A stretch of 64,000 nt of DNA from Candidatus Oxydemutatoraceae bacterium (GCA_965220085.1 CBDCOZ010000003.1:1184001-1248000); one strand, 5' to 3'; positions 18,487-60,908 are shown, counted from the stretch's first letter. The notes: generated by a model from the sequence alone, not told the origin. A program made the numbers and translations.

Positions 18487-19540
18487 CTATCGCAACGGGC
18501 CTTCAAGGAAGAGGCGCAAGCGCAAGCGCACAGGCACATGGTCCTCTGTCACCTGAGCGCCTATGCTACACAGCGGCCCTTCCGATGCGGGCGCGGAAAA
18601 CTGATCCTTGAAAGAAACGCAGGCGCGTACGTACTTGTCCACATCGGCCGGGAAGGGCGCGAAGTTCGAGGCAGTGACAGCGGTTGCCGCAACGCCCGCT
18701 ATGTCAGCATAGGCATCGGCTGCGGGAGCGCCATTGGCGGGCGCATCGGCCTGTTGCCACTGCCAACTCAGGGTGTCGACATTGATGCCGTTGTTCTCCG
18801 TCACACCGGCGATGGAAGCTCTGATCATGCCCGTGGCGGTGGTGACTGTGGGTGCGCCGCTGGCGGCCATCTGCGTGGATGCGCTCACCAGGTTGATGGT
18901 CATGATGGCGGAACTTCTATCAGACTGAAATATAAAAGTAAAGTCGGTATAGCCAGTGGCGATGGAAATAGCATCGGCAGGCGGGGCGTATCTGAAACGA
19001 AGATGATTCCCAGGGGGATTAGCGAAATCAAATGTGCCAAAGAAGGCAGTCTGTTCATGCAAACCCACATTGTCAGCAAGATCCCCGCCATCCCCTCTGG
19101 TCAAGGTGCCGCGATCAGGATAGGTTTCAAAGTACAGCGAGGTGTCCTGGGGGAAGCCGGGGAAGTCGGCCAATACGAAAAGGTGGCTGCCGCCAAGGGG
19201 GACATTAACGCTGCTGTCTTGGGCGGTTTGAGCGTTCGCCTGGGTTGCGCCCAATGTCAAAGACAATGCCAGCAGGCAACGCATGGCGCATCCGACCACG
19301 GTGCGGCCGGCGCCTGCCGCCCGCGCGAACGACGGGCGGACCACAACAGACCGCAACCGCAACAACAATCCGCGCACAGCCGGTGCGCACGGTCGCTTTG
19401 CGGATGGCGGGTTGCGATATGCGAGTGATAAAAAACGAGTGAGAAGGCGATACAGCGAAACGCCGACAATCCCCTTACCTACAAGGCTAGGGGGAGGGGG
19501 GGGGGGGGGGGGGGGTAGTGTTAAAAATTTGTCGATTCAT
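18487..19540 (-). CDS. Secreted Ig-like protein, FLEGPLR family member 1, frameshifted in a poly-C tract (OFF)
   Basis: AGGAGG-N7-ATG at 19540; G20 run at 19496-19515 gives MNRQIFNTTPPPPPPSP*. One base fewer joins the open frame through ...LGATQANA-Q to VRLRLRLFLEGPLR*. Confidence 0.75.
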
Positions 19541-20018
19541 ATCTAATCCTCCTATGACAAGTAAACGCGATAGTCTAACCATTGCCGGCACTATCACAAA
19601 TGTAAGCCATCCTATGGCACGTAAATGTGGTTGGGTAATCATTGTCGGCACTATATCACAAACATAAGCCATCCGCAAGTGCCTTTGGATTCTAGCCTCA
19701 CCCCTTTCCGGCTCAGGGTATTTGCACTATATATAGGCTGGCTACGAGGATGGTGTGCTATGCCGATGCGGGGTATTTACACTATATATATAGAGGATAT
19801 GGCGGCATTGCGACCCTCGCCGCTATTGCCATGCGAAAACAGCGACTAAACACCGCTGTTTACAACAGTTTCCGCTGTTGCCGGACAGAGCCAAGTACAT
19901 AAGCCCCGATATTCCCCGATATTTCATGACCGCTCAAGTTGTGTTAGTATGGCATTCTGTGTAGAATAAGCAATGCATGATTATCTGCATTGCAAAAAAG
20001 ATTAAGGATTAAACGGTT

Positions 20019-20137
20019 TGCCTGGCGGCTATAGAGCACTGGTACCACCCGATCCCATTCCGAACTCGGAAGTGAAACGGTGCATCGCCGATGGTAGTGT
20101 GGGGTCTCCCCATGCGAGAGTAGGACACTGCCAGGCG
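20019..20137 (+). rRNA. rrf: 5S rRNA (unlinked)
   Basis: TGCCTGGCGG...CCCGATCCCATTCCGAACTCGGAAGTGAAAC...CGCCGATGGTAGTGTGGGGTCTCCCCATGCGAGAGTAGG...CTGCCAGGC; canonical 5S with paired ends. Confidence 0.97.
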
Positions 20138-20177
20138 TTTATTCCGCTTCCCGTTGTTATTTCCCGGTACTACCGCC

Positions 20178-20924
20178 ATGGGCTTTGATATTGAAACTTT
20201 TCTCGTCGCAGGCACCGCTGTCACGGGCTTGTTGCTCGTCATCGCGCGCTTCGCGAATACCGCCCGCCCGCGCTGGTTGTTTGATACGGCGCAGTCGTTT
20301 TTCCCCGTACTGGCGATTGTTCTGATTCTGCGCAGTTTCATCATTGAGCCGTTTAGAATCCCCTCGGGCTCCATGTTGCCGACATTGGAAATCGGCGATT
20401 TCATCGTTGTCAATAAGTTTTCCTACGGCGTAAAACTGCCGCTGCTACATTGGCAGTTGCTAGAAGTCGGCGCGCCGCAACGCGGGGATGTGGTCGTCTT
20501 CCGTTATCCGCACGACCCATCGCAGGATTACATCAAGCGCCTGATCGGCTTGCCGGGCGATCACATCGTCTATAAAGACAAACAACTGACTATCAACGGC
20601 AGAAAAATCGCGGCGGACGATGCTCGCCCGTATCCGCAGCCCGAGACCTATCCGCTGATCATGGAGCGTCGCAGCGAACAGTTGGAAGGCGCCGCTCACG
20701 ATATTCTCTTGACACCGGCGCGCCGGCAGCACGACGGGGAGTGGACGGTACCCGCGGACTCCTACTTCGTGATGGGAGACAATCGCGACAACAGCAACGA
20801 CAGCCGCGTTTGGGGGTTTGTCGCCAAGGAGCATTTGGCCGGCAAGGCATTTTTGATTTGGATGAGTTGGGACTACGATGAAAACAACATCAAGTTCCCC
20901 CGCATATGGACGAGTATCCGCTGA
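20178..20924 (+). CDS. lepB: Signal peptidase I
   Basis: IPSGSMLPTL, DYIKRLIGLPGD and GDNRDNSNDSR motifs. Confidence 0.96.
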   Translation: MGFDIETFLVAGTAVTGLLLVIARFANTARPRWLFDTAQSFFPVLAIVLILRSFIIEPFRIPSGSMLPTLEIGDFIVVNKFSYGVKLPLLHWQLLEVGAPQRGDVVVFRYPHDPSQDYIKRLIGLPGDHIVYKDKQLTINGRKIAADDARPYPQPETYPLIMERRSEQLEGAAHDILLTPARRQHDGEWTVPADSYFVMGDNRDNSNDSRVWGFVAKEHLAGKAFLIWMSWDYDENNIKFPRIWTSIR

Positions 20925-21583
20925 TGCCCGACTTAAAAGACTTGCTCCCGGCGGAGTTTTTTAAGACCCCCCAATTCAATACGGCGATTACCCACCAGAG
21001 CGCGGGTTTTCCTAACAACGAACGGATGGAATTTCTGGGCGATGCCGTATTGCAGCTTGCCATCAGCGAAACGCTCTACCTCTCGAGCGCAAAAGACGAA
21101 GGGTATCTGACAAAGTTTCGCGCCTATCTGGTATGCAAGGACACGCTGTCCGAGTTGGCGCAGGAATGTCGGCTGGGCGATCTGATCAAGCTCGGCCCCG
21201 GCGAGAACCGAGACAACATCACGAAATCTATTCTGGGCAATGCGTTTGAAGCGATTATTGCCGCGGTGTATCTGGCGCACGGTTGGGATACGGTGCGAGG
21301 ATTTATCGAGACGGTTTATGCGAGCCGTCTGGAGCACATGCCGACCTTGGAAAAACTCAAGGATGCCAAAACAAGATTGCAGGAGTATTTGCAATCGCTG
21401 GGACACGCCTTGCCGGTCTATGCGCTGACAAAGAGCGGCCCCGGCAACGCGCCTGTGTTTGAGGCGCGGTGCAGCATCGACGAGTTGGATGTCGTGACCC
21501 GCGGGCGCGGAGCGACCAGACGCGCCGCCGAGCAGGAAGCGGCTGTCCGCGCGCTGGAGTTGTTGCAAGCCGGACTGTCGTGA
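20924..21583 (+). CDS. rnc: Ribonuclease III
   Basis: NERMEFLGDAVL signature and dsRBD (DAKTRLQEYLQ...AEQEAA); operon position. Confidence 0.96.
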   Translation: MPDLKDLLPAEFFKTPQFNTAITHQSAGFPNNERMEFLGDAVLQLAISETLYLSSAKDEGYLTKFRAYLVCKDTLSELAQECRLGDLIKLGPGENRDNITKSILGNAFEAIIAAVYLAHGWDTVRGFIETVYASRLEHMPTLEKLKDAKTRLQEYLQSLGHALPVYALTKSGPGNAPVFEARCSIDELDVVTRGRGATRRAAEQEAAVRALELLQAGLS

Positions 21584-22431
21584 GCGCGAAGCAACAATGC
21601 GGAAGCGTGGCCATCATCGGCGCTCCCAACGCCGGCAAATCCACATTATTTAACCGCTTGATCGGACGGCATCTGTCGGCTGTGACGCACAAGCCGCAGA
21701 CGACCCGTCGCAATATCAGAGGGGCGCTGACCGAAGGGGCGGCGCAGATGATCTTTATTGATACGCCGGGCATCCACAAAGGGCGGGCGGGCGCGCTCAA
21801 TCGCGCGCTCAATCGCAACGCAAAAAGCGTCCTCTACGATGTCGATGTCATCATCCTGATCGCCTCGTGCCGGCGCTGGACGCGACAGGATCAGGACATA
21901 CACGACTTGATTGCCGATATTCCGGCGCCGTGCCTGCTAGCGCTCAATAAGATCGACCTGCTTGCGGACAAATCCGAGATGTTGCCGCTGATAAAACAGA
22001 TGGACGAGCGCAACCGCTTTGATGCGATTATTCCGATTTCGGTTTTGCGCAACAAAGCGATTGCCGCGCTGAAACAGGAGATCGTATCTCGCCTGCCGCA
22101 ACGGCCGTTTCTGTTCGGCGACGATACGATCAGCGACCAGAGCGATGAGGTGATCATCGTTGAATTGATTCGCGAGAAACTGATGCAATACTCTCACGGC
22201 GAGTTGCCGTATATAACCGATATCCGAGTGGAATCCATTGAGCAAAAGGGGCCGCGGCGCAATATCACCGTGAACATTCTGGCTGACAAACCCGGGCGCA
22301 GAGCGATATTGATTGGCGCCGGCGGCTCCAAATTGAAACTGATCGGTTCCACCGCCCGCAAACGGATAGAGCAGGCGCTCGGCGCCCGCACATACCTCGA
22401 CTTGCGGGTGAAAGACAAGAAGACCGCATGA
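21580..22431 (+). CDS. era: GTPase Era
   Basis: GAPNAGKST, DTPG and NKID motifs plus KH domain; GTG start overlapping the rnc stop. Confidence 0.95.
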   Translation: MSAKQQCGSVAIIGAPNAGKSTLFNRLIGRHLSAVTHKPQTTRRNIRGALTEGAAQMIFIDTPGIHKGRAGALNRALNRNAKSVLYDVDVIILIASCRRWTRQDQDIHDLIADIPAPCLLALNKIDLLADKSEMLPLIKQMDERNRFDAIIPISVLRNKAIAALKQEIVSRLPQRPFLFGDDTISDQSDEVIIVELIREKLMQYSHGELPYITDIRVESIEQKGPRRNITVNILADKPGRRAILIGAGGSKLKLIGSTARKRIEQALGARTYLDLRVKDKKTA

Positions 22432-22437
22432 GAGCAG

Positions 22438-23169
22438 ATGATTGCTTTTCAAGACGAACCGGCCTTTGTCATTCATAAACGCGCCTATAACGACCGCAGC
22501 GATCTGGTGCAAATTTTAACGCCCGGACACGGGCGGCTGACCGTGATTGCCCGCTCGTCCGTGAAGATGATCGGCAAAGTGCTGCAACCGTTTATCCCGG
22601 CCAATGTCAGTTGCGGCGGCAGAGGGGAGATACCGAGCTTGCGCCAGTTTGAGCCCGAAGGCGCACAGATACTGACCGCTGCCGAACAGCGTATCGTCGG
22701 CATGTATGTGAATGAGTTGCTGACCAAGTTGACGCCTTTTCGCAGCGCATCCCGCACTTTGTTTCATTTGTATTCCCGTTGCATAACCGCTATCGGCGGC
22801 ATGTCCGACATGCGCGCCGACCTCGCCGCAGTGGAAAAGATACTGCGGAACTTTGAAGCGGATTTGCTTGAGTTGGTCGGCAACGGTTTGCAGTTGCAAT
22901 ACGAAAGCGGCGGCATGCAAGCGCTACAACCCGACGCATATTACCGCTACGATATTGACCGCGGAGCGGTGCGAGCGGGCGGCGGTGATGCGAGCGAATT
23001 CGTATACACCGGCGCGGCTCTGATTGCGCTGCGCGAACGTCTCACAACCTGCGATCGCCCGTTGATGACCGAAGCAAAGCAACTGTTGCGGCAGGTCATC
23101 GACTGCCACCTCAACGGCAAAGCGATAGAGACCCGCGCCCTGTTTTCGTATTTGCAAAACCTGACTTGA
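22438..23169 (+). CDS. recO: DNA repair protein RecO
   Basis: AFVIHKRAY, LQPF and YVNELL motifs; synteny era-recO-pdxJ. Confidence 0.9.
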   Translation: MIAFQDEPAFVIHKRAYNDRSDLVQILTPGHGRLTVIARSSVKMIGKVLQPFIPANVSCGGRGEIPSLRQFEPEGAQILTAAEQRIVGMYVNELLTKLTPFRSASRTLFHLYSRCITAIGGMSDMRADLAAVEKILRNFEADLLELVGNGLQLQYESGGMQALQPDAYYRYDIDRGAVRAGGGDASEFVYTGAALIALRERLTTCDRPLMTEAKQLLRQVIDCHLNGKAIETRALFSYLQNLT

Positions 23170-23227
23170 AAGCGGGGGGCGATTAGCAGTACTATGGGTA
23201 ACTTCGCCGTAATATGACCGGATAAAC

Positions 23228-23959
23228 ATGGTTCAAACGCACATCAATGCCGCTTTATGGGTCAATATCGACCACGTCGCGACCTTGCGCGAGGCGCGCA
23301 AGACGCCATACCCCGACCTCGCCGAGGCAATCGCGCAAGCCGAAGCCGGCGGCGCTTCCGGCATCACGATGCACTTGCGCGAAGACCGCAGGCATGTGCG
23401 CGATGACGATGTGCGCATGGCGCGGGAGCGAGTGACGACAGCGCTGAATCTTGAGATGGCGGCAACCGATGAGATGGTCGCCATCGCGGTTGCGACAAGG
23501 CCGGATGAGTGTTGCATCGTGCCGGAGAAACGCGAGGAATTGACGACCGAAGGCGGTTTGAATGTCCGCGCACAGTTGGCGCAAATCAGCGATGCGTGTC
23601 GCGCATTGAAGGCCGCCGCAATCAAGGTATCGCTGTTCGTAGAAGCCGATCGGCGAACGCTGGATGATGCGGCGGCGGTCGGGGCGGACATCGTTGAGCT
23701 GCACACCGGCCAATACGCGCTCTGCGAGGGCGAAGCGCAACAAGCCTGTTTGCGGCGGATAGCGGATGCCGCCGAATATGCCGCCGGGCTCGGTTTGCAA
23801 GTCAATGCCGGGCACGGCTTGCGGCGTGAAAATGTCGCCCCGATTGCCGCCATCACACAGATGACGGCGCTAAACATCGGTCACGCTGTCATCGCCGATG
23901 CCGTGTTCATGGGATTGCGCGAGGCGACCGCGGCGATGTATCGGGCGATGCAAGCATGA
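23228..23959 (+). CDS. pdxJ: Pyridoxine 5'-phosphate synthase
   Basis: VNIDHVATLREAR, HLREDRRH, TTEGG and NAGHGL motifs. Confidence 0.97.
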   Translation: MVQTHINAALWVNIDHVATLREARKTPYPDLAEAIAQAEAGGASGITMHLREDRRHVRDDDVRMARERVTTALNLEMAATDEMVAIAVATRPDECCIVPEKREELTTEGGLNVRAQLAQISDACRALKAAAIKVSLFVEADRRTLDDAAAVGADIVELHTGQYALCEGEAQQACLRRIADAAEYAAGLGLQVNAGHGLRRENVAPIAAITQMTALNIGHAVIADAVFMGLREATAAMYRAMQA

Positions 23960-24315
23960 TACACGGTATCGGCATAGACATCGTGGATGTTCGCCGCATC
24001 GTCAGGTTGTTGCGACTCTATCCGTTGCGTTTTCCGCGTCGCATCTTACACCCGACAGAGCTGTTGACATACCAGCAGAAGCGCGACAAGGCCGGCTATC
24101 TCGCGCGCCAATTTGCCGCCAAAGAGGCGATCAGCAAGGCATTAGGGTGCGGTTTTCGCAACGGCTGCTATGCCGGCACGATGATAGTGGAGCGCGATGC
24201 GGCGGGACGTCCGGTTGCCAGCGTACCGGCGGCGGGCGCCGATATAGAGCTCAAAGTCAGCATCTCCGGCGAGAAAGATTATGTGGTGGCTCAAGCGCTT
24301 GCGCTCAGAACCTAA
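23956..24315 (+). CDS. acpS: Holo-ACP synthase
   Basis: GIGIDIV and FAAKEAISKALG motifs. Confidence 0.93.
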   Translation: MIHGIGIDIVDVRRIVRLLRLYPLRFPRRILHPTELLTYQQKRDKAGYLARQFAAKEAISKALGCGFRNGCYAGTMIVERDAAGRPVASVPAAGADIELKVSISGEKDYVVAQALALRT

Positions 24316-24321
24316 TCCATA

Positions 24322-25497
24322 CCATTACCCGCGCTCGCGCTTCAATTCCGCCTTCAGCGCGCAGAGTTGCTCCAGCGCTTCCTTCGGGCTCAGGCGGTCG
24401 GGGTCCAGTTGCTCCAGCGCCTGTTGCAACCCGCCATCGGTTTGCGGACGGGCGGACTCGGTGTCGTATCATGACCCGCGCTCGCGCTTCAATTCCGCCT
24501 TCAGCGCATAGAGTTGCTCCAGCGCTTCCTTCGGGCTCAGGCGGTCGGGGTCCAGTTGCTCCAGCGCCTGTTGCAACCCGCTATCGGTTTGCGGCCGGTC
24601 GGGCTCGGTGTCGTATCATGACCCGCGTTCGCGCTTCAATTCCGCCTTCAGCGCGCAGAGTTGCTCCAGCGCTTCCTTCGGGCTCAGGCGGTCGGGGTCC
24701 AGTTGCTCCAGCGCCTGTTGCAACCCGCTATCGGTTTGCGGACGGGCGGACTCGGTGTCGTATCATGACCCGCGCTCGCGCTTCAATTCCGCCTTCAGCG
24801 CATAGAGTTGCTCCAGCGCTTCCTTCGGGCTCAGGCGGTCGGGGTCCAGTTGCTCCAGCGCCTGTTGCAACCCGCTATCGGTTTGCGGCCGGTCGGGCTC
24901 GGTGTCGTATCATGACCCGCGTTCGCGCTTCAATTCCGCCTTCAGCGCGCAGAGTTGCTCCAGCGCTTCCTTCGGGCTCAGGCGGTCGGGGTCCAGTTGC
25001 TCCAGCGCCTGTTGCAACCCGCTATCGGTTTGCGGACGGGCGGACTCGGTGTCGTATCATGACCCGCGCTCGCGCTTCAATTCCGCCTTCAGCGCGCAGA
25101 GTTGCTCCAGCGCTTCCTTCGGGCTCAGGCGGTCGGGGTCCAGTTGCTCCAGCGCCTGTTGCAACCCGCTATCGGTTTGCGGCCGGTCGGGCTCGGTGTC
25201 GTATCATGACCCGCGCTCGCGCTTCAATTCCGCCTTCAGCGCATAGAGTTGCTCCAGCGCTTCCTTCGGGCTCAGGCGGTCGGGGTCCAGTTGCTCCAGC
25301 GCCTGTTGCAACCCGCTATCGGTTTGCGGCCGGTCGGGCTCGGTGTCGTATCATGACCCGCGCTCGCGCTTCAATTCCGCCTTCAGCGCATAGAGTTGCT
25401 CCAGCGCTTCCTTCGGGCTCAAGCGGTCGGGGTCCAGTTGCTCCAGCGCCTGTTGCAACCCGCTATCGGTTTGCGGCCGGTCGGGCTCGGTGTCGGC
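24322..25497 (-). repeat. Eight tandem 147-bp copies of the mutS 3' end (seven lie beyond the stop codon)
   Basis: Units begin at 24322, 24469, 24616, 24763, 24910, 25057, 25204 and 25351; each encodes ...[18 protein letters not shown](Y/C)[11 protein letters not shown] followed by a stop. Confidence 0.97.
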
Positions 25498-27930
25498 TTT
25501 GAGGCTAAGGCCGAGTTGGGGTGTCTCATCGCTGCCATCATTGCGGGCCGCCTCCAGCGAATGCAATTTATCTTGCGCCTGTGCGATGACACTTTCCGGC
25601 ACCCCGGCCAGGCGGGCGACTTGTAAGCCGTAACTCTTGCTGGCCGGGCCGGGTTTGACTTTGTACAGGAAAACAATTTTTTCCTTGTGCTCGGTGACAT
25701 CGATATGCACATTGCTGATAGTCGGGAACTGTTCGTGCAACGTCGTCAACTCAAAGTAGTGGGTTGCAAACAATGTATAGGAATGATTGTGCTGCGCAAT
25801 GTGGGCGGCACAAGCCCACGCCAGACTCAGCCCGTCAAAGGTACTCGTGCCGCGCCCGATCTCGTCCAGCAACACCAGGCTTTTGTCGGTCGCGTTGTTG
25901 AGGATGTTGGCGACCTCCGTCATTTCCACCATAAAGGTGGAGCGCCCGGATGCGATGTCATCGGACGCCCCGATGCGGGTGAAGATGCGGTCTACCGGAC
26001 CGATGCGAGCCGCTTCGGCGGGCACCCAGGCGCCGATGTGCGCAAGCAATACGATCAGCGCGGTCTGGCGCATATACGTCGACTTGCCGCCCATGTTCGG
26101 GCCGGTGATGATGCGTATGCGACCCTTGTCGCTCAGCGTCAGGTCGTTGGGGACAAAAGGCTGGTCGGAAATGTTCTCTATGATCGGGTGGCGGCCGTTT
26201 TTGATTTCAATCATCGGCTCGGCGGCGAATTGCGGCCTGCTGTGGTCGTAGAGTTTGGCGCAGTGGGCGAGGGTCGCCAGCACATCCAACTCCGCCAGCG
26301 CGCCAGCGCAAGCATAGAGTTTCTGCAGATACGGTTTGAACTCTTCGAGCAACTTTTGATACAGCGCCTTCTCGCGCGCCAACGCGCGCGTCTGCGCGGT
26401 CAGCACCTTGGCCTCGTAATCTTTCAACTCGGCGATGGTGAAGCGCTCGACATTCTTCAGGGTCTGCGTGCGCATATAATCGGCCGGCACTTTCTGCGCC
26501 GACGCTTTGCCGACCTCAATATAAAAGCCGTGCACTTTGCTGTAAGAAAGTTTGAGCGAGTGGATGCCGCTGCGCCGCTGTTCCCGTTGCTCGAGTTCCA
26601 GCAGGTAGCGGTTGGCGCCGTCGTTCATGCTGCGCAACTCATCCAACTGCGCGTCAAAGCCCGCTTTCAATACGCCGCCGTCGCGGATCGTCACCGGAGG
26701 CTCGTCGATGATGGCTTTGTCCAGCAACGCCAGCAACTCGGGTTGTTCGGCGACGGTCTGACGAAGACTTTTAAGCAACGCGCTTGTCGTTGTCTTCAAC
26801 GCGGATTTGATCTGCGGCAGCAGGCGCAAACTTTCGCGTATGCCGATGATGTCGCGCGGACGCGCGTGCAACATGGCGATGCGCGATGTGATGCGCTCAA
26901 TATCGGCGACCGACCCAAGCGATGCGCGCAAGGTCTCGCGACCGGCTTCGTCCGTCAGCCAAGCGATGGCATCCTGCCGCGCGATGATGCGGGCATGGTC
27001 TTTCAAAGGTTGGTTGAACCAGCGCTTAAGACAACGCCCGCCCATCGCCGAACTGACATGGTCGTAGATCGCAAACAAGGTGTGTTCCCGATTCCCCGAT
27101 ATGGATTGATCGATTTCCAAACAGACCCGGCTGACCGAGTCTATCTCCAGATATTCGCCGCCGGATTCCACCGTCAGTTTTCGCAGATGGGGCACCGCGC
27201 TGCGCTGCGTCTCTTTGGCATAGGAGAGCAGGGCGCCGGCGGCGGAGATGGCCGAATCCATATGTTCGCAACCGAAACCCGACAGGTCGCGGGTTCGCAT
27301 CTGCTCGCATAATTTGCGCCGACACGTATCCGCCTCAAAGTGCCACGCAGGGTAGGCGCGACCGTCAATCGGCAGCGTGCCTTCCTGTTCCTCGCTGATC
27401 AATATTTCCGCCGGGCGCAACCGTTGCACTTCGTCCATGACTTCGCTGTCGCTGTCGCACTGGCGCAGGCTGAAGATACCGGCGCTCAGTTCCAGCGCCG
27501 CAATCCCATAGCGGTGGGTGTCGTGCTGGCGAAAGACGGCCATCAGATAATTGTCGCTTTTGGCTTGCAGCAAAGTCTCCTCGGTCAAAGTGCCGGGGGT
27601 GACGATGCGGGTGATTTTACGCTCCAACGGACCCTTGCCCGCCTTGGGGTCGCCGACTTGGTCGCATATCACGACCGACTCGCCGTAGCGGATTAACTTG
27701 GCGATGTAGGAGTCCATCGCGTGCACCGGTATGCCGGCCATCGGAATCGGTTTGCTATTGGCTTGGCCGCGCGAGGTCAGCGTCAGATCGAGCAGGCGCG
27801 AAGCTTTTTCCGCATCAGAATAAAAGAGTTCATAGAAATCGCCCAATTGATAGAACAGCAACAAATCGGGATACTCTGACTTAAACGCCAGATACTGTTG
27901 CATCGCTGGTGTCGGTTTGTTCATTATCAA
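25351..27930 (-). CDS. mutS: DNA mismatch repair protein MutS
   Basis: [44 protein letters not shown] and ATHYFELT motifs. Confidence 0.99.
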
Positions 27931-28264
27931 TCAATCGAGGTAAAGGGTAGTAATACGATCTCCTGGTTTCAGGCTAACTCGCATTTTAGCAAACTCGCCA
28001 TATTCCCCCTTTTTGCCCGCGCTTGTGAGGGCAGGCCAGCGGGATATTTTGTATCATCCGGGCATTGCCACAGAGGAAAGCGCCGCCGAATCATGCCGCA
28101 AACACCCCAAATTTCAGGCATCATACAGGGGGGGTGCAAATATCTTATCTGTGGTATAATCACTGGTCGTTAGGATGTGTTTGAACCCTCATGAGGTTCT
28201 GCTATGGCAAAAAGACGGCGCACATCCCCACGCTTTGCAACTAAGATGAAGAGGAAAATACCAC

Positions 28265-29546
28265 ATGCAGTTTTCACCGGAACCACAGGATGCCCTGACA
28301 ACGTACGATTATATTAATACCCCCCCCCTTGTACGAGAGGCATCCGGTGGCGCGGCTTAGCCTCTGGTCGCTCGCTCTGCTCGCCCTGATTGCAATCTGC
28401 GCTCAGGCACAGGCGCAGACCGCACCCGTCGCTGGGGACAACACCATAGAGGTGTACGTCACCGCAACCGCCGACAATCCCTACGTCTTCGAGAAGAACG
28501 ATTTTCCCTTTGAGGATGACGACAAGCACGCCTTTGCCAGGGTGGATCTGGGCAGTGTGCCCACCGTCGGCACCCTGAGGACGGGCGCTGTCGCCTCAGC
28601 GATGGGGCATCAATTTTATGCGAATCCCACCGGCAGTCAGAGCGGGTTTTCCGACCTTACCTACTACCCGGCGCCGGGGCAGAGCCCGACCGAGGGCTAC
28701 GCCAGTTTCACATTCGGCGTACGCGATTCCTCCGGTGCGCTCAGCCATGCTCTTGCCACCATCACCATAGATCTGGTGCGGGCGCCGCAACTGCCGGCAA
28801 CCGGCGCGCCCGCGGTCACGGCGCCCATGGGCAGCACAGCCTGGCACGAGGATGTGACCCTGACGGCATCCATCGGCACTGTCAGAGATGCCAATGGCAT
28901 TAGCACCGACACCATAGCATGGCAATGGGAACATGCCGCCGCTCCCGCCAGCGGCATCCCGGCCACCAGCGCATACGCCGCCATAGCCGGGGCCGACGAC
29001 GACACATTCACGCCCCTGCAGGATCATGTGGGCGACTATGTGCGGGTATGCGTCTCTTTCATGGACAACTTCATGGTGCCCGGCGACGAGCGGCGATGCA
29101 CCGCGGGCAATGTCATCGTCAATGTCAATGATGCGCCCGCCAGCGCCGATGCCTTTGTCAATGTGCCGATTACCGCAACCGCCGATATGCCGTTCTACTT
29201 TAGCGCCGGGCATTTTGCGTTCATGGATGAGGATGTCGGCGACAATGCGGACTTTGAAAGCGTCAGCATAAGCCTCCCCGGCAGGAGCAACATTGCCGGC
29301 ACATTGCGCCTCGGCGCCGAGCCGGGGTTTGCAAGAGGCACCGCGACCAGCGTTAACTTTGACGACATAGCCACGCTCAACTTTTATCCGAACACGGACC
29401 AGCAGGCTACCACCGCCTATTCCACATTCTCATTTGCCGTGTACGATGGCGCGACGTACAGCGAAATCCACACCATGACCATCAACCTGGTGCCTGCCGA
29501 CATACGCTTGCGGCTGCGCCTCTTCCTGGAAGGCCCGTTGCGATAG
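28265..29546 (+). CDS. Secreted Ig/cadherin-like protein, FLEGPLR family member 2, frameshifted in a C9 tract (OFF)
   Basis: GAGGA-N9-ATG at 28265 stops after 31 codons with C9 (28320-28328). C8 would join ORF 28329-29546, which has signal peptide ...ICAQAQA-Q and ends DIRLRLRLFLEGPLR*. Confidence 0.75.
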
Positions 29547-29707
29547 CGCAAGCGACACCCCTTCGCATATCCATGTTTTAGGCGTGTTTTAATAATTTTC
29601 GTGCCGCTTATCGGACGGATAGGGCATTCGGTCAGAAACCCCTGATGCCCCCGCCGAGTGTGGGATAATATGCGAATAATCTATTCATTATTATTGGGAG
29701 AAGTACA

Positions 29708-47833: not shown

Positions 47834-47874
47834 AACATGGAGCCCTACAGGGGAGTGGCGTATTGTGCAAGCTA

Positions 47875-47930
47875 TGTCCCCCCTCTCCGGTTCGCTGCGC
47901 TCGCCGACTCTCCCGCGAGGGGAGAGTGCT
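47875..47930 (-). repeat. REP-like element between convergent genes
   Basis: CCCCCTCTCCGG...GCCGACTCTCCCGCGAGGGGAGAGTG. Confidence 0.75.
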
Positions 47931-47950
47931 GGTTAGCTTGGTGCAGGGAA

Positions 47951-50584: not shown

Positions 50585-50645
50585 GGTATTGTACCTATCT
50601 AGTTATAATTTCATTATTTATTACGAGTTTTTAGAGCCTGACTCC

Positions 50646-51722: not shown

Positions 51723-51875
51723 GTCAATGCGCTCCCGCCAAGGGTCGGTTTTTGTTGTCAAAAGTATTCATTTGTCTAAGCCGCCTGCGGGCAAAGTTTG
51801 TCAATAATTATCAAATCGGGGCAAATGTGGTAAATATAATATGGCAAATATAATACCGTATCCGGATCATTACAA

Positions 51876-52217
51876 ATGGATTCAATGAATGCAACAAATG
51901 AAAACTCCGATTGTCAGGAAAGTGTTCGCACTGCCAACGCAACAGCGACCAAAACCAAAGTGCGACATCCGTCCCAATACGAGGTGTTGTTCGTCAACGA
52001 CGATTATACGCCGATGGATTTTGTGGTTGACATATTGAAGCGCCAATTCCAATTTGACCACCAACGCGCAGTGCGGTTGATGATGGACATACACCGCGAA
52101 GGCATCGGGGTCGCCGGCGTCTTTCCGCGCGAGATTGCCGAGACGAAAGTCGTCGAGGCCAACCGCTACGCGCGCGCTTGCGAGCATCCTCTGTTGTGCG
52201 CGATGAGAAAAGCCTGA
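51876..52217 (+). CDS. clpS: ClpA adaptor ClpS
   Basis: NDDYTPMDFVV, EIAETKV and HPL motifs. Confidence 0.95.
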   Translation: MDSMNATNENSDCQESVRTANATATKTKVRHPSQYEVLFVNDDYTPMDFVVDILKRQFQFDHQRAVRLMMDIHREGIGVAGVFPREIAETKVVEANRYARACEHPLLCAMRKA

Positions 52218-52233
52218 TGAGAAGCCTGATGAG

Positions 52234-54513: not shown

Positions 54514-54662
54514 GACGATAGGATTGATTAAAGGGGCACAGGTTCGCTACCGTACTGAGAATGACAAGATTGAAGCGGAAGCCGCCGCAGACAGCAAGAC
54601 GCCGATGAAATCCTCCAAGCGTGTTGTCAACTGAGACGGTGGGTGAGACGATAGGATTGACT
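54409..54662 (+). repeat. Diverged 121-bp duplication of the clpA 3' end
   Basis: GACAAGATTGAAGCGGAAG...AAGACGCCGATGAAATCCTCCAAGCG(C/T)GTTGTCAACTGAGACG occurs twice (54409-54529 and 54530-54662). Confidence 0.92.
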
Positions 54663-54851
54663 GCGATTTGCTTTCCGGGCTTCTATGCTTGACTCCGCCC
54701 GCCAACGATGACAGCCGGTTACTAAGGCGATGTTCCATCGCTATTTTCACATAGGGCAATAACTAGTGGGAGCGGTTAGAGACGCCGCTATGCTACGACA
54801 CTCAGCAAGGGGAATGTTGCTTGCGCTAAGCAAGGAGAAATGTCGCTCGCA

Positions 54852-55589
54852 CTATCGCAACGGGCCTTCCAGAAAGATGCGCAAGCGCATCCGTAATCCC
54901 GTGAAAACGCATTGACCGCCGACGAGGGGGGAGAGTCCGCCGTGCGGGGCTGAGGAGCGAGTCGCGCCTTGTCGGATATGTGACGGTTTCGCGCATCTGC
55001 ATTCAATCGCGCCAATGGTGTTGATGGTTGCCGGAATCAAACCGCGCGTCCCGTCCGGGTCGCAGTTGTAAACGTATCGCGAATCGCTTCCGTCCTCCGG
55101 TCTTTGCGGAAACTCCAAGTTGGGGCCAAAAGCGTCGTAGCAATTGCCGCCGGAAGAGTATGTGCACTGACTGCCCGTGCTACCGCTGGCAAGGTCCCAA
55201 TGCCCCACCAGACACCGGCTGAGAGAGATAACGGATTGCCAACCTCTCTCCTCGCATTTTTCTTTCGGCATCACGCATCTGCGATCCAACGTCACTTTTC
55301 CCGTCGGACAAGTTTTCACGCATTCGTTTCCGTCACGGAATTCGTCCGTTGCGCAGGATTGTGCTTGGGCCTGAGCGGATACGATGAAAAAGGCGAGCAG
55401 AAAGAGCGACCGGAGGCCGCACCTGCTTAACTTAATGTGGAGGGGGGGGGGGGGGGGGCAAACGGATGCTAACGTGCTTGCACGGAATTGTGCGGCGTTA
55501 AAAAGCGCGGTGCGGGTTTTCAACCTTCCGCAGAAGATTTGAATCGTGCGTCCGCGAATGAAAGAGTTCGGAGTCATATTGCAAATCAT
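54852..55589 (-). CDS. Secreted Cys-rich protein, FLEGPLR family member 3 (ON, G17 tract)
   Basis: Shared leader, poly-Pro from G17 (55442-55458), signal peptide AQAQA-Q, Cys-rich passenger, ends GLRMRLRIFLEGPLR*. Confidence 0.8.
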   Translation of the reverse strand: MICNMTPNSFIRGRTIQIFCGRLKTRTALFNAAQFRASTLASVCPPPPPLHIKLSRCGLRSLFLLAFFIVSAQAQAQSCATDEFRDGNECVKTCPTGKVTLDRRCVMPKEKCEERGWQSVISLSRCLVGHWDLASGSTGSQCTYSSGGNCYDAFGPNLEFPQRPEDGSDSRYVYNCDPDGTRGLIPATINTIGAIECRCAKPSHIRQGATRSSAPHGGLSPLVGGQCVFTGLRMRLRIFLEGPLR

Positions 55590-56152
55590 ATCACAAACCT
55601 CTATAAAAAATTCACAAACAACTGAGTGTTGTTTGTGCTCTTATTACCGTGCCTCATTAAATGCCGTTTGCGTACACAGAAGTCCACACTATATACGATT
55701 TGCACCCGCCTTGCAACTGGCGCATTTATCTTTGTAACGCCTACATTATATAGACTATTCCTAAGCCTTGTGCTTGCACTGGTCACACGCTCCCCTCGCA
55801 GGAGAAGCGCAGAGTCCGCTATAACTCCGAGCTTTTTTGAAAGTTGCAGAATTCGATCCACAGGCGATGGATGATGCAGTGAAGAGAAAGCTTCGTACTT
55901 GCGCCGACCACACGCTCCCCTCGCAGGAGAAGCGCAGAGTCCGCTATAACTCCGAGTTTTTTTGACAGTCGCAGAATTCGAGCTACAGGTGGCGGACGAT
56001 GCAAAGAGTGTTACTTGCACCATGCAAGGGGTGAGTGTTACTCGCACTAGGCAACGGAGAGTGTCGCTTGCGCCAGGCAAGGGGAGCGTGTCACTCGCAC
56101 TCGGCAAGGGGTGAGTGTTGCTTGCGCTAAGCAAGGAGAAATGTCGCTTGCA
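55590..56152. repeat. Conserved inter-cassette spacer (palindrome, 125-bp units, six ~26-bp units)
   Basis: Homologous to 57713-57853 plus 58935-59533, and to 60909-61321. Confidence 0.9.
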
Positions 56153-57712
56153 CTACCGCAACGGGCCTTCAAGAAAGAGACGCAGGCGCAAGCGTATATT
56201 GGCTCTGACCACCGGCGCAACGGAAGTCCAACAACGCATCTCGCTACCGCCGTCATCATCATCAAAGGCGGCGCAGACACGGAGGAGTTTGCCCGCCTGC
56301 CCCTGCATGGGAGCGAAGGTCGCAGAGGCAGCGCCGGGGATATTCGTGATATCGTCGGGCAACTGCGGTGCGCGGGCGAAAAGGCACTCAACAAACTGCC
56401 GATAAGTTGAGTCGGTGTTTCCGATGCACACCAAATTCTCGTCAATTTCATTAAACATGTGAGTGGCGAGAGACCGCGAAGGTCCGCTTGTTTGGAGACC
56501 GTCAAAAATTTGCTGAACGGCATCCAGCATGTCGCCATAGTTTTCGTCGCGGACGAGATAGGACACAAACGCGGTCAGCACGGCATCTCCGATGTCCATA
56601 AGGCCCTGATGCGTCTGTGCGTCCCTTGCGGCGACTATCCCGTCGTATATTTCCTTCGCCGTTCCCGTGAGGGTGGCGGTGGAGACGGTCGCAGTTTCAA
56701 CTTCCTGCCACTGCCAGACGGGGGCGAAGGCAGTGATGTCATTGGCATCGTCTATCGTGCCGATGGATGCGGTCAGTGTGCTGCCCACATTGGGCCCGTC
56801 CATGGTCAGGTCAGCGCCGTCCGCCGCCGTCACCGCCGGTTCGCCGCTGGCTACAGCGTTGACCTTCGCAACGGAAGTCCAGCAACGCGTCTCGCTGTTG
56901 CCGGCATCATCATCAAAGGCGACGCAGACACGAAGGAATTTGCCCGCCTGCGCCTGCATGGGAGCGAAGGCCTCAGCGGTAGCGCCAGGGATATTCGTGA
57001 CATCAGGCATCTGCGGAATTTGAGAGAACAAGCAATGCGTGTATGTCTTTCTGAAAATGTTGCCGCTGCCGACGCACGGCGAGCGGTTAACCCCGCTGGC
57101 CTGCTCCACCACTTCAAAAAGGGCTCCGCCGCTGGCGAAAACTTGTCCGGAAGCGTCATTGGCAAGCGCTCCAAGCGAATGGGTCTCGTAATAGTCGTCG
57201 TCGCGCAGAAGGTAAGACACAAACGCGTCTCGATACGCCATTGCCGCCGTCGCCAATATCGTGTTGGGCGAGGAAAACCACGCCGTGAACCCGTCATAAA
57301 CCTCCTTCGCCGTTCCCGTGGTCGCAACTTCAACCTCCTGCCACTGCCAGACGATGGCGCCATCGGCATCGGCTATCGTGCCCGTAGTTGCGGTCAGCAC
57401 ACTGTTCACATTGGGCCCGTTCGTGGTCAGGTCGGTGCCGTCCGCCGCCGTGACCGCCGGTTCGCCAGCAACGGCAGTGTTGGTCTGCGCCTGCGCTTGA
57501 CCGCAGACGATGATTAGGGCGAGCAGAAAGAGCGACCGGAGGCCGCACCTGCTTAACTTAATGTGGCAAAGGGGGGGGGGGGGGGGGGGGGGGTAAACGG
57601 ATGCTAACGTGCTTGCACGGAATTGTGCGGCGTTAAAAAGCGCGGTGCGGGTTTTCAACCTTCCGCAGAAGATTTGAATCGCGCGTCCGCGAACGAAAGA
57701 GTTCAGAGTCAT
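56153..57712 (-). CDS. Secreted protein with two Ig-like repeats, FLEGPLR family member 4 (ON, G23 tract)
   Basis: G23 at 57571-57593 is in frame; two GEPAVT...WQWQ...RVC repeats; ends NIRLRLRLFLEGPLR*. Confidence 0.85.
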   Translation of the reverse strand: MTLNSFVRGRAIQIFCGRLKTRTALFNAAQFRASTLASVYPPPPPPPLCHIKLSRCGLRSLFLLALIIVCGQAQAQTNTAVAGEPAVTAADGTDLTTNGPNVNSVLTATTGTIADADGAIVWQWQEVEVATTGTAKEVYDGFTAWFSSPNTILATAAMAYRDAFVSYLLRDDDYYETHSLGALANDASGQVFASGGALFEVVEQASGVNRSPCVGSGNIFRKTYTHCLFSQIPQMPDVTNIPGATAEAFAPMQAQAGKFLRVCVAFDDDAGNSETRCWTSVAKVNAVASGEPAVTAADGADLTMDGPNVGSTLTASIGTIDDANDITAFAPVWQWQEVETATVSTATLTGTAKEIYDGIVAARDAQTHQGLMDIGDAVLTAFVSYLVRDENYGDMLDAVQQIFDGLQTSGPSRSLATHMFNEIDENLVCIGNTDSTYRQFVECLFARAPQLPDDITNIPGAASATFAPMQGQAGKLLRVCAAFDDDDGGSEMRCWTSVAPVVRANIRLRLRLFLEGPLR

Positions 57713-57820
57713 ATCACAAACCTCTATAAAAAATTCACAAATAACTAAGCGTTATTTGCGTACATATCTTCCTATATCCCGCGAGCAACTAAGTGTTGTT
57801 TGCGTGCACAGAAGCCCACA

Positions 57821-58879
57821 CTATACACGATTTGCACCCGCCTTGCAACTGGCTGTATGATGCCAGTACATATTGGAAACTTTGGGCAAATATTGTGTAA
57901 TTTGTGCCATAGGTGTTTGGAGCCTCAATCCATAATGTGGTCGTTGGGTATTAAACCATAGCAGGTAGTCTATCATACGCTCATTGAATTCCCGAATATC
58001 GGTCAGCAACAAGCCCTCTTCAAACTCCACAAACTCTTCCTGGAGCGTGCGGTTAAAGCGTTCATTGAATGCGTTCATCTTCGGACATTTGGGATACGTG
58101 TAGCAGTGCCGGATACCTTGCTCTTGCAGGCAGCGATCAAACGCGCCGCAGAACTCGGAGCCGTTGTCGGTGAGCACTTGCTCTATCTTGGCGGGGAACA
58201 CTTCCATCATCAGCTTCATAAAGAACTCGGCGGCGATGCTGTTGCCACGAGGGACGCCGATAGCAAAGCCAAACCGGCTATGCAAATCTACGGCCGTGAA
58301 CAGATAGCGACGCTGACCTTGAATAAACCGTTGCACGGTATCCATAGCGATGCAATGCCCGATACGCTTTGCATTGAAACCCTTTTCAAGACGCTCCTTG
58401 CGCTTGCTTTGCGGTGTGCGTTGCCGACGCGGTTTTGCGGGCACCCAGCGCATCTTATCGGCTTCGCCGGCAATCAGTCGCGCGATGGTGCGCGGCTTGG
58501 GACAACGCAAGCCGCGCTCGTCACACCACGGTTGAATCAGCAGGTATATCTTGGGTGCGCCGTAGGGATAGTTTTCGCGGTGTCGCCGAATCTCGGCGAT
58601 AATCTCCTCAGGCCAGTTGCGCCGGCGTGGCTGGCGCGGGCAAGTGCTCTGATTGATTAAGCCGTTAATGCCATAAAGCCGATATTGTCTCCGCCACTCA
58701 TAGAGTGATGATTTGCTGATGTGGTAAGCGTCCATGCTGGCTTTTATGTTGTGGTTCTCCCATAATATAAGGGCTTCAAGTTTCTGTTTTGCTTTATAGC
58801 TCATAGTTGCCTCGTCTATTGAAAAAGCAGCTATTTTATAGAAACCTTTGATGCCGTGGCCGATGTGTTGATATTGCAT
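57821..58879 (-). CDS. IS481-family DDE transposase
   Basis: HTH, then IAMDT, VLTDNGSEF, NERFNRTLQEEF and RPH motifs; the stop codon lies outside the element. Confidence 0.92.
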   Translation of the reverse strand: MQYQHIGHGIKGFYKIAAFSIDEATMSYKAKQKLEALILWENHNIKASMDAYHISKSSLYEWRRQYRLYGINGLINQSTCPRQPRRRNWPEEIIAEIRRHRENYPYGAPKIYLLIQPWCDERGLRCPKPRTIARLIAGEADKMRWVPAKPRRQRTPQSKRKERLEKGFNAKRIGHCIAMDTVQRFIQGQRRYLFTAVDLHSRFGFAIGVPRGNSIAAEFFMKLMMEVFPAKIEQVLTDNGSEFCGAFDRCLQEQGIRHCYTYPKCPKMNAFNERFNRTLQEEFVEFEEGLLLTDIREFNERMIDYLLWFNTQRPHYGLRLQTPMAQITQYLPKVSNMYWHHTASCKAGANRV

Positions 58880-58934
58880 GTCGGCTACGTTTGTTGTTGA
58901 AGCCAAGAATCCAGAATGTTTCTGGCATTATGCA
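57854..58934 (-). mobile_element. IS481-family insertion sequence (1081 bp)
   Basis: Imperfect terminal inverted repeats TGTATGATGCCAGTACATATTGGA / TGCATAATGCCAGAAACATTCTGGA; absent from the homologous spacers near 55716 and 61045. Confidence 0.9.
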
Positions 58935-59000
58935 CCAGCGCATTTGCCTGTGGCAATGCCTGCATTATATAGACTATTCCTAAGCGTTGTACTTGCGCCG

Positions 59001-59340
59001 GTCACACGCTCCTCAGCGGGGGAGGCGCAGAGTCCGCTATGACTCCGAACTTTTTTGAAAGTTGCAGAGCCCGAGCCACAGGCGATAGACGATGCAGTGA
59101 AGAGAAAGCTTCGTGCTTGCGCCGGTCACACGCTCCTCAGCGGGGGAGGCGCAGAGTCCGCTATGACTCCGAACTTTTTTGAAAGTTGCAGAGCCCGAGC
59201 CACAGGCGATAGACGATGCAGTGAAGAGAAAGCTTCGTGCTTGCGCCGGCCACACTCTCCTCGAGAGAGAGTCGCAAAGTCCGAGCCACAGGCGATGGAC
59301 GATGCGGTGAAGAGAAAGCTTCGTGCTTGCGCCAACTACA
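59001..59340. repeat. 124-bp tandem units within the inter-cassette spacer
   Basis: Unit starts at 59001, 59125 and 59249. Confidence 0.9.
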
Positions 59341-59533
59341 CTTCCTCTCTGGTGCGCTTGCGGAGATAGTGCGAGGAACGTACCGGAGTAACTACCGCCA
59401 GTCAGCCCCCAAGGAAGCATGTGTGCAAGTCCCGCGAAGGAATTGCTTCCCGCTACCGCAACGGAGAATGTTACTTGCACCATGCAAGGAGTGAGTGTTA
59501 CTCGCACTACCGCAAAGGAAGGTGTCACTTGCA

Positions 59534-60908
59534 CTACCGCAACGGGCCTTCCAGGAAGATGCGCAACCGCAAGCGCAAACTGCCGGGCACAACACGGGCG
59601 GCGACGGAGCAGAGCGTCTCGCTGACCGGCATCGGATGGCTGTCCATGAAACTTGCGCAGACTCTTATGTATTGTCCCACCTGCTCCTGGCCTGGGGTGA
59701 ATATGGTGGTGGTGGCATCGGTGATGGCGGAGTAGTCGTTATCCGCCGGGGTGCCGGAGTCCGGGGCAACGGCCTGTTGCCATTGCCACATCAGGGTGCT
59801 GCCATCTATGCCGTTAGGTTCGGTTATGCCTCCTACGCCAGTAGACAGCCGGGTGCCCTCGGCGTAGGTCGGGTTCTCTGCAGTGGTGACCGGGATTATG
59901 CCAGGTCTGCCAGAGGCGGCGACCTGAGCCGCCACCACCAGACGAATGCTGGCTATGGCGTTGTTGGTGCTGGTTTTGTTGTCGGTGCCATCGCTGCCAT
60001 CGTCCACCACATTGAAGTTGAAAGAGGTGTAAGCGTCGCCAAGGTCGTCGGGGTCGTTGGGCTCCTGGCCTGATTCCGGGTAATAGGTCAGTTCCCTGGC
60101 GGTCAGTTGGGCCACAGTTATTTCCATTGTGGGAACATCGGCGTTGGTCAGGACTGTGCCATCCAGAGCCATAGTGCCGCGGAATGGCAATGTTTGTACG
60201 ATGACGGCAGCCAGCATATCGTCATCGGCATCGGTGAGCGGGAAGTCGGTTGCCTTGAATATGTATGGGTTGGCGGCATTGGCGTTGACATTTACCGTGA
60301 GCGCTCTTGTGGTGAATAAATTGCTTGCCGTCGGCTTGTCATTGATGTTGGCCACGGCGGTGGCTATCTGCAGGCATCGCATCTCCGAGTTGGGGGTGGT
60401 GGCCATATCCATGAACGATGCGCAGACCTGCAGAAACTTGCCCACCTCATCATCGCCCGGAATGAAAGCGGCATTGGTCGCGCCGGCTATGGCGGTGTAG
60501 GTGCCGCCGTTGGCGGTGGCCGCGCTCCATTGCCAACTGAATGTGCCCAAGCCATCGGTGTCGGCTATGGCGGTGGAACCGTTGCCGCCGTTGGCAGTGA
60601 TGGCGGAGTCCTCAGTGGGGGTGTTGCCGCTGGCGTAGGTGACGGCGGGTGTGCCGGTGGCCGGGCTGTTGCTCTGCGCTTGCGCCTGAGCGGATAAAAT
60701 GAAAAATGTGAGCAGAAAAAGTGACCGGAAGCCGCACCCGCTTAACTTAATGCGGAGGGGGGGGGGGGGGGGGGGGGTAAACGGATGCTAACGTGCTTGC
60801 ACGGAATTGTGCGACGTTAAAAAGCGCGGTGCGGGTTTTTAACCTCCCGCAGAAAATTTGAATCGCGCGTCCGCGAATGAAAGAGTTCGGAGCCATATCA
60901 CAAATCAT
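59534..60908 (-). CDS. Secreted Ig/cadherin-like protein, FLEGPLR family member 5, frameshifted in a G21 tract (OFF)
   Basis: Leader MICDMAPNSFIRG... terminates just after the tract (60757-60777). G20 or G23 would join the open frame ...FFILSAQAQA-Q to GSLRLRLRIFLEGPLR*. Confidence 0.85.

Follow-up and report, generated by a model that had tools for sequence, protein, structure and literature searches.

Five genes in a 64,000-nucleotide (nt) stretch of DNA from Candidatus Oxydemutatoraceae bacterium (GCA_965220085.1 CBDCOZ010000003.1:1184001-1248000; this whole stretch is called the window here, and positions are counted from its first letter) encode proteins that end in FLEGPLR, and each of these genes, numbered m1 to m5 in the order of the window, carries a long run of C between an ATG that is preceded by a Shine-Dalgarno (SD)-like motif and the region that encodes a signal peptide-like sequence. 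A probable explanation, to which we assign a probability of roughly two-thirds, is that these runs are switches for translational phase variation by slipped-strand mispairing in a lineage-specific family of surface proteins. The mechanism of the original prediction, a homopolymer that shifts the reading frame of the leader, is supported by the sequences of paralogues that lack the tract, by the distribution of SD-like motifs and by the absence of any other start codon in m3 to m5, and it extends well beyond the window because the five tracts are a sample of a genome-wide system.

The tracts were found at the positions and with the lengths that had been claimed for them, the four runs that appear as G in the strand presented (m1, m3, m4, and m5) being C on the coding strand, which is the minus strand. 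When the frames were re-derived by a script, C17 and C23 were in frame with the leader ATG, and C20, C9, and C21 were each one base too long, again as claimed. As assembled, two of the alleles are ON (m3 and m4) and three are OFF (m1, m2, and m5). The tract is 25 to 131 nt downstream of the SD-preceded ATG in the five genes. The leaders had been described as unrelated in part, and the window does hold three types, which begin MNRQIFNT in m1 (type A), MQFSPEPQ... in m2, and M(ICN)MTPNSF... in m3, m4, and m5 (type B). What has to be narrowed is the statement that every FLEGPLR gene has a tract. It is true of the window, where all five open reading frames (ORFs) that end in FLEGPLR-stop (contig C3 1202510-1243557) have one, and it is valid there only, because genome-wide a tract accompanies 82 of 185 such ORFs of at least 150 amino acids (aa). 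The parts of the five genes are as follows.

19548 to 19553, minus strand: SD-like AGGAGG of m1, 8 nt upstream of the leader ATG (the 20 nt upstream of ATG 19540 read ttgtcataggaggattagat)
19538 to 19540, minus strand: leader ATG of m1, opening the MNRQIFNT leader
19496 to 19515, minus strand: poly-C of m1, 20 nt (G20 as presented), out of frame; C19 or C22 would be in frame
19487 to 19489, minus strand: TAG that closes the m1 leader frame at the assembled length, giving the 17-codon product MNRQIFNTT-PPPPPP-SP-stop
18487 to 19494, minus strand: main frame of m1 from the tract to FLEGPLR-TAG, 335 codons, with a 68-codon module followed by the signal peptide-like MRCLLALSLTLGATQANA
28250 to 28255, plus strand: SD-like AGAGGA upstream of the leader ATG of m2
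28265 to 28267, plus strand: leader ATG of m2, opening the leader MQFSPEPQDALTTYDYIN, as located by the frame script
28320 to 28328, plus strand: poly-C of m2, 9 nt, out of frame; C8 or C11 would be in frame
28358 to 28360, plus strand: TAG that closes the m2 leader frame at the assembled length, giving a 31-codon product
28329 to 29546, plus strand: main ORF of m2, 405 codons and TAG, with the FLEGPLR end; TTG 28329 and GTG 28347 are candidate tract-independent starts
55598 to 55602, minus strand: SD-like AGAGG of m3, upstream of ATG 55589
54852 to 55589, minus strand: full in-frame ORF of m3, 245 aa, with an alternative second ATG at 55577
55442 to 55458, minus strand: poly-C of m3, 17 nt (G17 as presented), in frame
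56153 to 57712, minus strand: full in-frame ORF of m4, 519 aa, from ATG 57712, which AGAGG precedes at 57721-57725
57571 to 57593, minus strand: poly-C of m4, 23 nt (G23 as presented), in frame
60906 to 60908, minus strand: leader ATG of m5, which AGAGG precedes at 60917-60921; a further ATG is at 60896
60757 to 60777, minus strand: poly-C of m5, 21 nt (G21 as presented), out of frame; C20 or C23 would be in frame
60747 to 60749, minus strand: TAA that closes the m5 leader frame at the assembled length, giving a 53-codon product
59534 to 60754, minus strand: main frame of m5 from the tract to FLEGPLR-TAG, 406 codons, with ATG, GTG, and TTG all absent from the stretch that separates the tract from the hydrophobic core

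In the translations the tract is followed by a basic n-region, then a hydrophobic core, and then an AQAQA-type motif, and the protein of m3, for example, consists in order of the type B leader, poly-proline, the signal peptide KLSRCGLRSLFLLAFFIVSAQAQA, a Cys-rich protein, and FLEGPLR-TAG. The sequence on the 5' side of the tracts is AT-rich and alike across the leader types (TTTAATACTA, ATATTAATA, GTTTATAATA, and CCGTTTA, for instance at 19516-19525 and 28311-28319 of the window), which suggests that the flanks belong to a common module or are under a common constraint. Between the poly-C and the signal peptide of m1 and its paralogues lies a module of about 26 to 68 codons (xVxKGIAGVSxYRLLTRFLSP..., 19290-19495 of the window, minus strand). 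This module of about 200 nt was considered as a mobile element and that possibility was ruled out, as all of its 15 blastn matches in the genome, the one in the window and 14 others, were in the same leader context, and it was always open in frame.

The genome consists of 2.49 Mb in three contigs with 55.7% G+C, and its G or C runs are distributed bimodally, with 112 of length 7, 10 of length 8, 4 of length 9, 1 of length 10, and 85 of lengths 11 to 28, the longest A or T run being 9. Thus, 90 G or C runs of at least 9 nt are present, and repeats of hypermutable length are in excess of chance, as they are at phase-variable loci. Among these 90 runs, 83 are downstream of an ATG, are C on the coding strand, and open straight into an ORF with LEG[PS]LR-stop at its end; these 83 family tracts are 9 to 28 nt long with a median of 19. 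The remaining seven include five that are ahead of family-like ORFs with other endings and two that lie elsewhere. When only leaders strictly of the MNRQIFNT type were considered, the C run at the homologous site was 2 to 7 nt in 36 genes and 9 to 28 nt in 29 genes. An interrupted tract, C9-T-C8, was found at C3:617479.

The genes with short runs at the homologous site provide evidence that the leader is translated together with the rest of the gene. For this comparison the three genes that bear a tract further downstream were taken out of the 36, and in 32 of the 33 paralogues that remained (C2 to C7) the leader ATG was in frame through to FLEGPLR, whereas in the tract genes this was so in 23 of 83 (Fisher p = 1e-12). 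These paralogues share the leader (SD, ATG, and M-N/K-R-Q-I-F-N/D-T), and in one of them, for example, the homologous site reads AAT ACT GCC CCG CAT TGG, which is N-T-A-P-H-W. In the subfamily to which m1 belongs, the tractless paralogues keep this continuity over the 60 to 70 codons from the leader to the signal peptide. The SD-like motifs, searched for from -16 to -4 of the start codon, point the same way. They precede the leader ATG in 72 of the 83 tract genes compared with 9.1% of all ATGs of contig C3, and they were found at 5 of 51 candidate starts that are downstream of the tracts and close to the signal peptide core, which is the background level. The type B leader of m3, m4, and m5, of 40 codons, is open in all eight paralogues compared, and the single long indel within it is 21 nt, a multiple of three.

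These results bear directly on the alternative that translation begins past the tract, at a start of the signal peptide's own, so that the tract and the short upstream ORF would be 5' untranslated sequence acting through transcription, mRNA structure, or coupling to the upstream ORF, or having no effect at all. A start of this kind had been named in the original prediction as the finding that would count against it, and the outcome differs between the genes. No canonical start (ATG, GTG, or TTG, in frame and within 14 codons before the core) was found in 54 of the 80 tract genes that have a recognisable hydrophobic core, and m3, m4, and m5 are among these 54. For m2, where the tract is only C9, a downstream start is possible, since TTG 28329 follows the tract immediately and GTG 28347 follows an SD-like GAGAGG (28335-28340) at a distance of six bases; in an alignment with the paralogue at C3:911044 this GTG corresponds to an ATG. 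The case is weaker for m1, where ATG 19284-19282 stands ahead of a textbook-like signal peptide and has no SD-like motif. Expression of m2 may be independent of the length of its tract. An untranslated region would not be expected to hold the ATG in frame in nearly all of the tractless paralogues, and past the tract the main frame stays open in 83 of the 90 cases. Judged by these start codons and motifs, initiation downstream of the tract appears to be contradicted for most genes and is possible for m2 and m1, and as a general explanation we consider it very unlikely. For most genes the repeat appears to be inside the translated region, less securely so in m2 and m1.

The mechanism of slipped-strand phase variation would then operate as follows. 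Each gene would encode a secreted or surface protein with a signal peptide, immunoglobulin (Ig)- or cadherin-like domains, and a C-terminal RLRLRLFLEGPLR-COOH. Translation would be initiated at the SD-preceded ATG upstream of the signal peptide, and the ribosome would cross the poly-C as poly-proline before it reaches the signal peptide and the remainder of the protein; elongation factor P (EF-P), which is needed for translation of poly-proline, is encoded in the genome. Slipped-strand mispairing during replication, presumably at a high rate, would alter the length of the tract, so that one length class in three would keep the start in frame and the other two would meet a stop about 2 to 10 codons past the tract and yield no secreted protein. 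The tract would be in the part of the pre-protein that is removed by signal peptidase, and therefore length changes that keep the frame would alter the discarded leader only. With about 83 independent switches in 2.49 Mb, the outcome would be a stochastic and combinatorial surface repertoire. That the N-terminal signal peptide is cleaved and that the proteins are at the surface is suggested by features of the translations and by Ig- and cadherin-like matches that are weak or precomputed.

When the phase of the 83 tracts was determined relative to the leader ATG, 23 were in frame, 38 were at +1, and 22 were at +2, and the in-frame fraction was not different from one-third (binomial p = 0.30). 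A random phase is what would be expected under unconstrained switching, and it would be expected equally if the phase in the DNA were not under selection. Paralogues whose flanks are at least 90% identical differed in tract length in four of seven pairs, by up to 6 nt. The m3 and m4 tracts, for example, are 17 and 23 nt long, and their flanks are 98% identical.

The random phase is also compatible with an explanation in which the tracts act at the level of RNA. RNA polymerase would slip on every allele and produce mixed transcripts, and the result would be reduced and noisy expression without heritable ON and OFF states, with slippage in DNA possible as well. The tracts are homopolymers of at least about 9 nt in a coding region, as sites of transcriptional slippage are, and their length, 9 to 28 nt with a median of 19, is far beyond the RNA-DNA hybrid of about 9 bp and the run lengths at which slippage is described for programmed transcriptional realignment and for poly(A) tracts in endosymbionts. 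The anatomy of the genes is the same under this explanation and under slipped-strand phase variation. However, slippage is best documented on A or T runs, and G or C runs form stable hybrids; a random phase would be expected equally of true contingency loci. The two explanations overlap and both processes may operate, in which case transcriptional slippage would make the states leaky and not binary. By itself we regard the RNA-level explanation as unlikely, but it deserves to be taken seriously. A further alternative is that the tracts are real and of a fixed in-frame length and that the OFF states are assembly errors of one or two bases. Homopolymers of 17 to 28 nt are the main source of consensus error in long reads, and +1 was somewhat over-represented among the 83 tracts compared with +2 (chi-square p = 0.055). 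On the other hand, 60 of the 83 tracts would have to be miscalled, and in both directions, while an artefact cannot account for the tracts being there, or for where they are and on which strand, and a fixed poly-proline of 6 to 9 residues, encoded by CCC only, at 83 loci would have no obvious purpose except mutability. This makes assembly error an extremely improbable explanation for the OFF states as a whole.

It might also be proposed that the tracts arose by mutational decay, without selection as switches, while a gene family expands and degenerates in a host-restricted bacterium, the out-of-frame genes being pseudogenes. The genome is small, the family is redundant, with 185 ORFs on 19.5% of the genome, and several members are truncated or have different ends. 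But decay would not be expected to place 83 of 90 long runs at one functional site and on one strand with only two lying elsewhere, the run lengths are bimodal and do not form a decaying tail, and past the out-of-frame tracts no stop interrupts the frames for hundreds of codons, until the conserved C-terminal motif is reached. We find it hard to credit decay as the origin of this pattern.

Several observations nevertheless weigh against slipped-strand phase variation or limit what can be concluded about it. A canonical start is close to the core in 26 of the 80 tract genes and in 18 of these it is ATG, and the SD-like GAGAGG ahead of GTG 28347 in m2 has been mentioned. The type B leader has no clear excess of changes at the third codon position, the variable columns in the eight paralogues being 22 of 40, 18 of 40, and 26 of 39 by codon position, and what speaks for its translation is that the frame is open, that an SD-like motif is present, and that there is no other start. 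For a Sec signal peptide the N-terminal extensions are long: type A has about 45 aa, m3 to m5 have about 77 aa, and m1 has about 100 aa. The ON and OFF calls are based on the assembled lengths of homopolymers of 17 to 23 nt, which are error-prone. In a sample of about 1 in 100 of the Hi-C Illumina reads, 601 were placed, 557 of them only partly, and depth was found in 3 of 30 bins, all of them at G tracts; the loose ends of the placed reads were long G runs, and the reads at the tracts are probably poly-G reads that do not come from this organism. The Logan contigs of two sequencing runs (X1 and X2) break at the tracts, and these breaks can be explained by paralogy alone, because the flanks of m3, m4, and m5 share 31-mers. 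Finally, MutS (25351-27930 of the window, minus strand) and MutL are intact, which neither prevents slippage at such lengths nor favours it.

In a six-frame translation of the genome, LEGPLR-stop occurred 222 times, and in 185 of these cases it ended a stop-to-stop ORF of at least 150 aa; together these ORFs cover 486,723 nt, which is 19.5% of the genome. The C-terminal motif, (I/L)RLRLRLFLEGPLR, is directly before the stop codon, and in the window it is encoded at 18487-18531, 29502-29546, 54852-54896, 56153-56197, and 59534-59578. The stop that follows it in the 222 occurrences is TAG in 142, TAA in 52, and TGA in 28. Because the codons of the motif vary synonymously and all three stops are used, the motif is conserved as protein, and the possibility that it is a DNA repeat or a recombination site was ruled out. 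It may be a new sorting or anchoring signal. The family includes giant ORFs of about 9,800 to 15,200 codons (up to about 15,190) that also end in FLEGPLR, on contig C3 near 1442672, 1770481, 1344718, and 1400155. The motif is not always C-terminal, because three proteins (L089:169-1593, L090:159-1802, and L091:126-2216) carry LRLRVFLEGPLR at a distance of about 45 to 55 residues from the N-terminus, and a GGS-rich linker comes next. After it, two of these three have repeated pre-peptidase C-terminal (PPC) domains (E 5e-20 and 8e-35); in the remaining protein there is a trypsin-like region, a weak match with E 0.019 that is below the cut-off.

When the five window proteins were compared with Pfam and NCBIfam, only sub-threshold Ig-like matches were obtained and no Opa or outer-membrane-barrel match was found; their paralogues in the family have precomputed Pfam matches to PF17803, PF05345, and PF17963, which are bacterial cadherin-like and Ig-like models. 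ESPR (PF13018) was absent from the full in-frame products of m3 and m4 in a Pfam scan with E up to 1, and no Pfam or NCBIfam model for the C-terminal motif was found. Among 30 relatives belonging to the same family or order, none had a match to the m4 protein. R-L-F-L-E-G-P-L-R followed by a TAR stop was searched for as a degenerate DNA pattern, which is blind to TGA stops and to Ile or Val before FLEGPLR, and there was no match in the GTDB species representatives and none in the JGI metagenomes. In a search of 5.8 billion proteins with the full m4 product 14 matches were obtained, of which eight were paralogues from its own genome and six were metagenome proteins that matched over a domain only, with 13 to 51% query coverage and 28 to 56% identity. 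Thus, no orthologue or close homologue of the family was found in the 30 relatives, the GTDB representatives, the JGI metagenomes, or the 5.8 billion proteins. No paper that mentions FLEGPLR, LFLEGPL, or FLEGPL was found in a full-text search of the literature, and no description of this switch system was found in the literature on phase variation, homopolymers, and symbionts, the main text of articles being covered in both cases.

Upstream of the leader ATG, m3, m4, and m5 each have a conserved promoter-like site about 100 nt from the ATG, which in m3 matches 9 of 12 consensus positions, and a hairpin followed by a T run.

55688 to 55716, minus strand: promoter-like TTGCAA-17-TATAGT of m3
57820 to 57848, minus strand: promoter-like TTGCAA-17-TATAGT of m4, from the consensus scan
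61016 to 61044, minus strand: promoter-like TTGCAA-17-TATAGT of m5, from the consensus scan
55613 to 55637, minus strand: 10-bp hairpin and then a T run in m3, between the promoter-like site and the ribosome binding site
57736 to 57760, minus strand: hairpin and T run of m4, upstream of the ribosome binding site
60932 to 60956, minus strand: hairpin and T run of m5, upstream of the ribosome binding site

The promoter-like sites are matches to the consensus, and their count in the region was not above that in shuffled sequences. The role of a promoter spacer was ruled out for the tracts, because they are downstream of the SD-preceded ATG and the promoter-like sites of m3 to m5 are about 230 nt upstream of them. 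The hairpin and T run, which are conserved in m3, m4, and m5, resemble a terminator placed inside the 5' leader, and their role could be that of an attenuator or of an operator.

Among known systems the Opa proteins of Neisseria are a multi-copy surface family in which CTCTT repeats in the region coding for the signal peptide switch about a dozen loci independently. The resemblance is that the repeat would be in the coding region of the leader peptide, that in-frame changes would leave the mature protein unaffected, and that the loci would switch independently and combine. In contrast to the Opa pentamer, the repeat here is a C homopolymer of up to 28 nt at about 83 loci compared with about a dozen, it is in an N-terminal extension ahead of the n-region and not within the hydrophobic part, and the proteins are Ig- or cadherin-like with a FLEGPLR end and without an Opa match in Pfam. 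In Bordetella fim, Neisseria porA and opc, and Treponema pallidum tpr, poly-C or poly-G tracts are located in promoters and their length modulates transcription. These too are long G or C homopolymers upstream of surface-protein genes, but the tracts described here are downstream of the SD-preceded ATG and, in m3 to m5, far past the promoter-like site. Programmed transcriptional slippage is known from insertion sequence (IS) elements, dnaX, and the poly(A) tracts of insect endosymbionts, mostly on A or T runs of 9 to 11 nt in single genes; the tracts here have in common with such sites a homopolymer longer than the RNA-DNA hybrid, on which the polymerase could realign into several frames, and differ from them in being runs of C. 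The only likeness of these leaders to the ESPR of autotransporters and two-partner secretion (TPS) proteins is, in general terms, that the signal peptide is preceded by an N-terminal extension.

MutS and MutL are encoded in this genome, whereas Campylobacter to our knowledge is without MutS/MutL-type mismatch repair. According to the PhasomeIt account of the Campylobacter poly-G phasome, a strain has 5 to 81 phase-variable genes and the tract lengths peak at 9 (53%) and 10 (26%), those of 13 to 15 being rare; homology groups there, like the present family, contain both tract-bearing and tractless members, and among the non-variable homologues some tracts are interrupted (PMC6321876). As that account describes it, the Campylobacter phasome is like the present system in having many G or C homopolymers per genome, mostly within ORFs and with translational ON and OFF states, which are the probable reading here (PMC6321876). 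It differs in that the 83 tracts here, with a median of 19 and a maximum of 28 nt, are all in one family and at one position. In Gardnerella the single gene nanH3 has a C8 to C14 tract just after the signal peptide (bioRxiv 10.1101/2020.09.16.300947). As far as nanH3 is described there, the likeness is in a poly-C near the 5' end, by the signal peptide region, of a gene for a secreted, cell-associated protein, in OFF lengths that lead to short peptides, and in starts that are mis-called by annotation pipelines, and the difference is that here the tract is before the signal peptide core, is about twice as long, and is present at about 83 loci (bioRxiv 10.1101/2020.09.16.300947).

Other features of the region were also recorded. 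Tandem repeats of 26 to 27 nt in 2 to 6 copies are at 54799-54854 and 56005-56155, at or just after the stops of m3 and m4, and at 61200-61332, upstream of the promoter region of m5; elsewhere in the genome a gene end that includes LEGPLR-stop is repeated in tandem at spacings of 58, 156, or 168 nt. A 5S rRNA gene is at 20021-20136 on the plus strand (Rfam, 100.7 bits), about 480 nt from the m1 leader, and neither 23S nor 16S rRNA had a match in the window. Within the 534-codon ORF at 23898-25502, a 147-nt unit is repeated eight times in tandem (24323-25495, plus strand, 96% matches), which corresponds to 49-residue protein repeats. The mutS gene, which encodes five MutS domains, is next to m2 in divergent orientation, its start and the leader ATG of m2 being about 335 nt apart. 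In the GTDB species representatives the best relatives of this MutS are only about 50 to 56% identical, and because of this the lineage is taken to be deep-branching in the Gammaproteobacteria.

The mechanism by which these genes would be switched is known from textbooks and no new principle is involved; it is the scale and the lengths of the tracts that are unusual, and the protein family is undescribed. It is possible, but on balance we doubt it, that the system is the longest-tract homopolymer phasome yet seen, with about 83 poly-C switches (median 19, up to 28 nt) in the disposable leader of one family that takes up about one-fifth of the genome and whose RLRLRLFLEGPLR-COOH is a previously undescribed signal. 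Slippage of both DNA and RNA polymerases would then randomise the surface at each division, and perhaps with each transcript, beyond classical ON and OFF states, and the motif would mark a sorting or anchoring pathway that is new and confined to this deep-branching lineage of Gammaproteobacteria. For annotation the consequence is that gene callers will mis-annotate the starts of most tract genes. Paralogues with and without tracts are present in one genome and therefore provide a clean comparative control, and the family would be a natural setting in which to test what length a homopolymer can reach before slippage in replication and transcription erases heritable states. If the switches work as we read them, about 20% of the genome of a 2.5-Mb bacterium is given over to a secreted family of which any subset of about 83 members can be expressed at random, and the contingency repertoire would be a very large one for a lineage without described relatives that carry the family.

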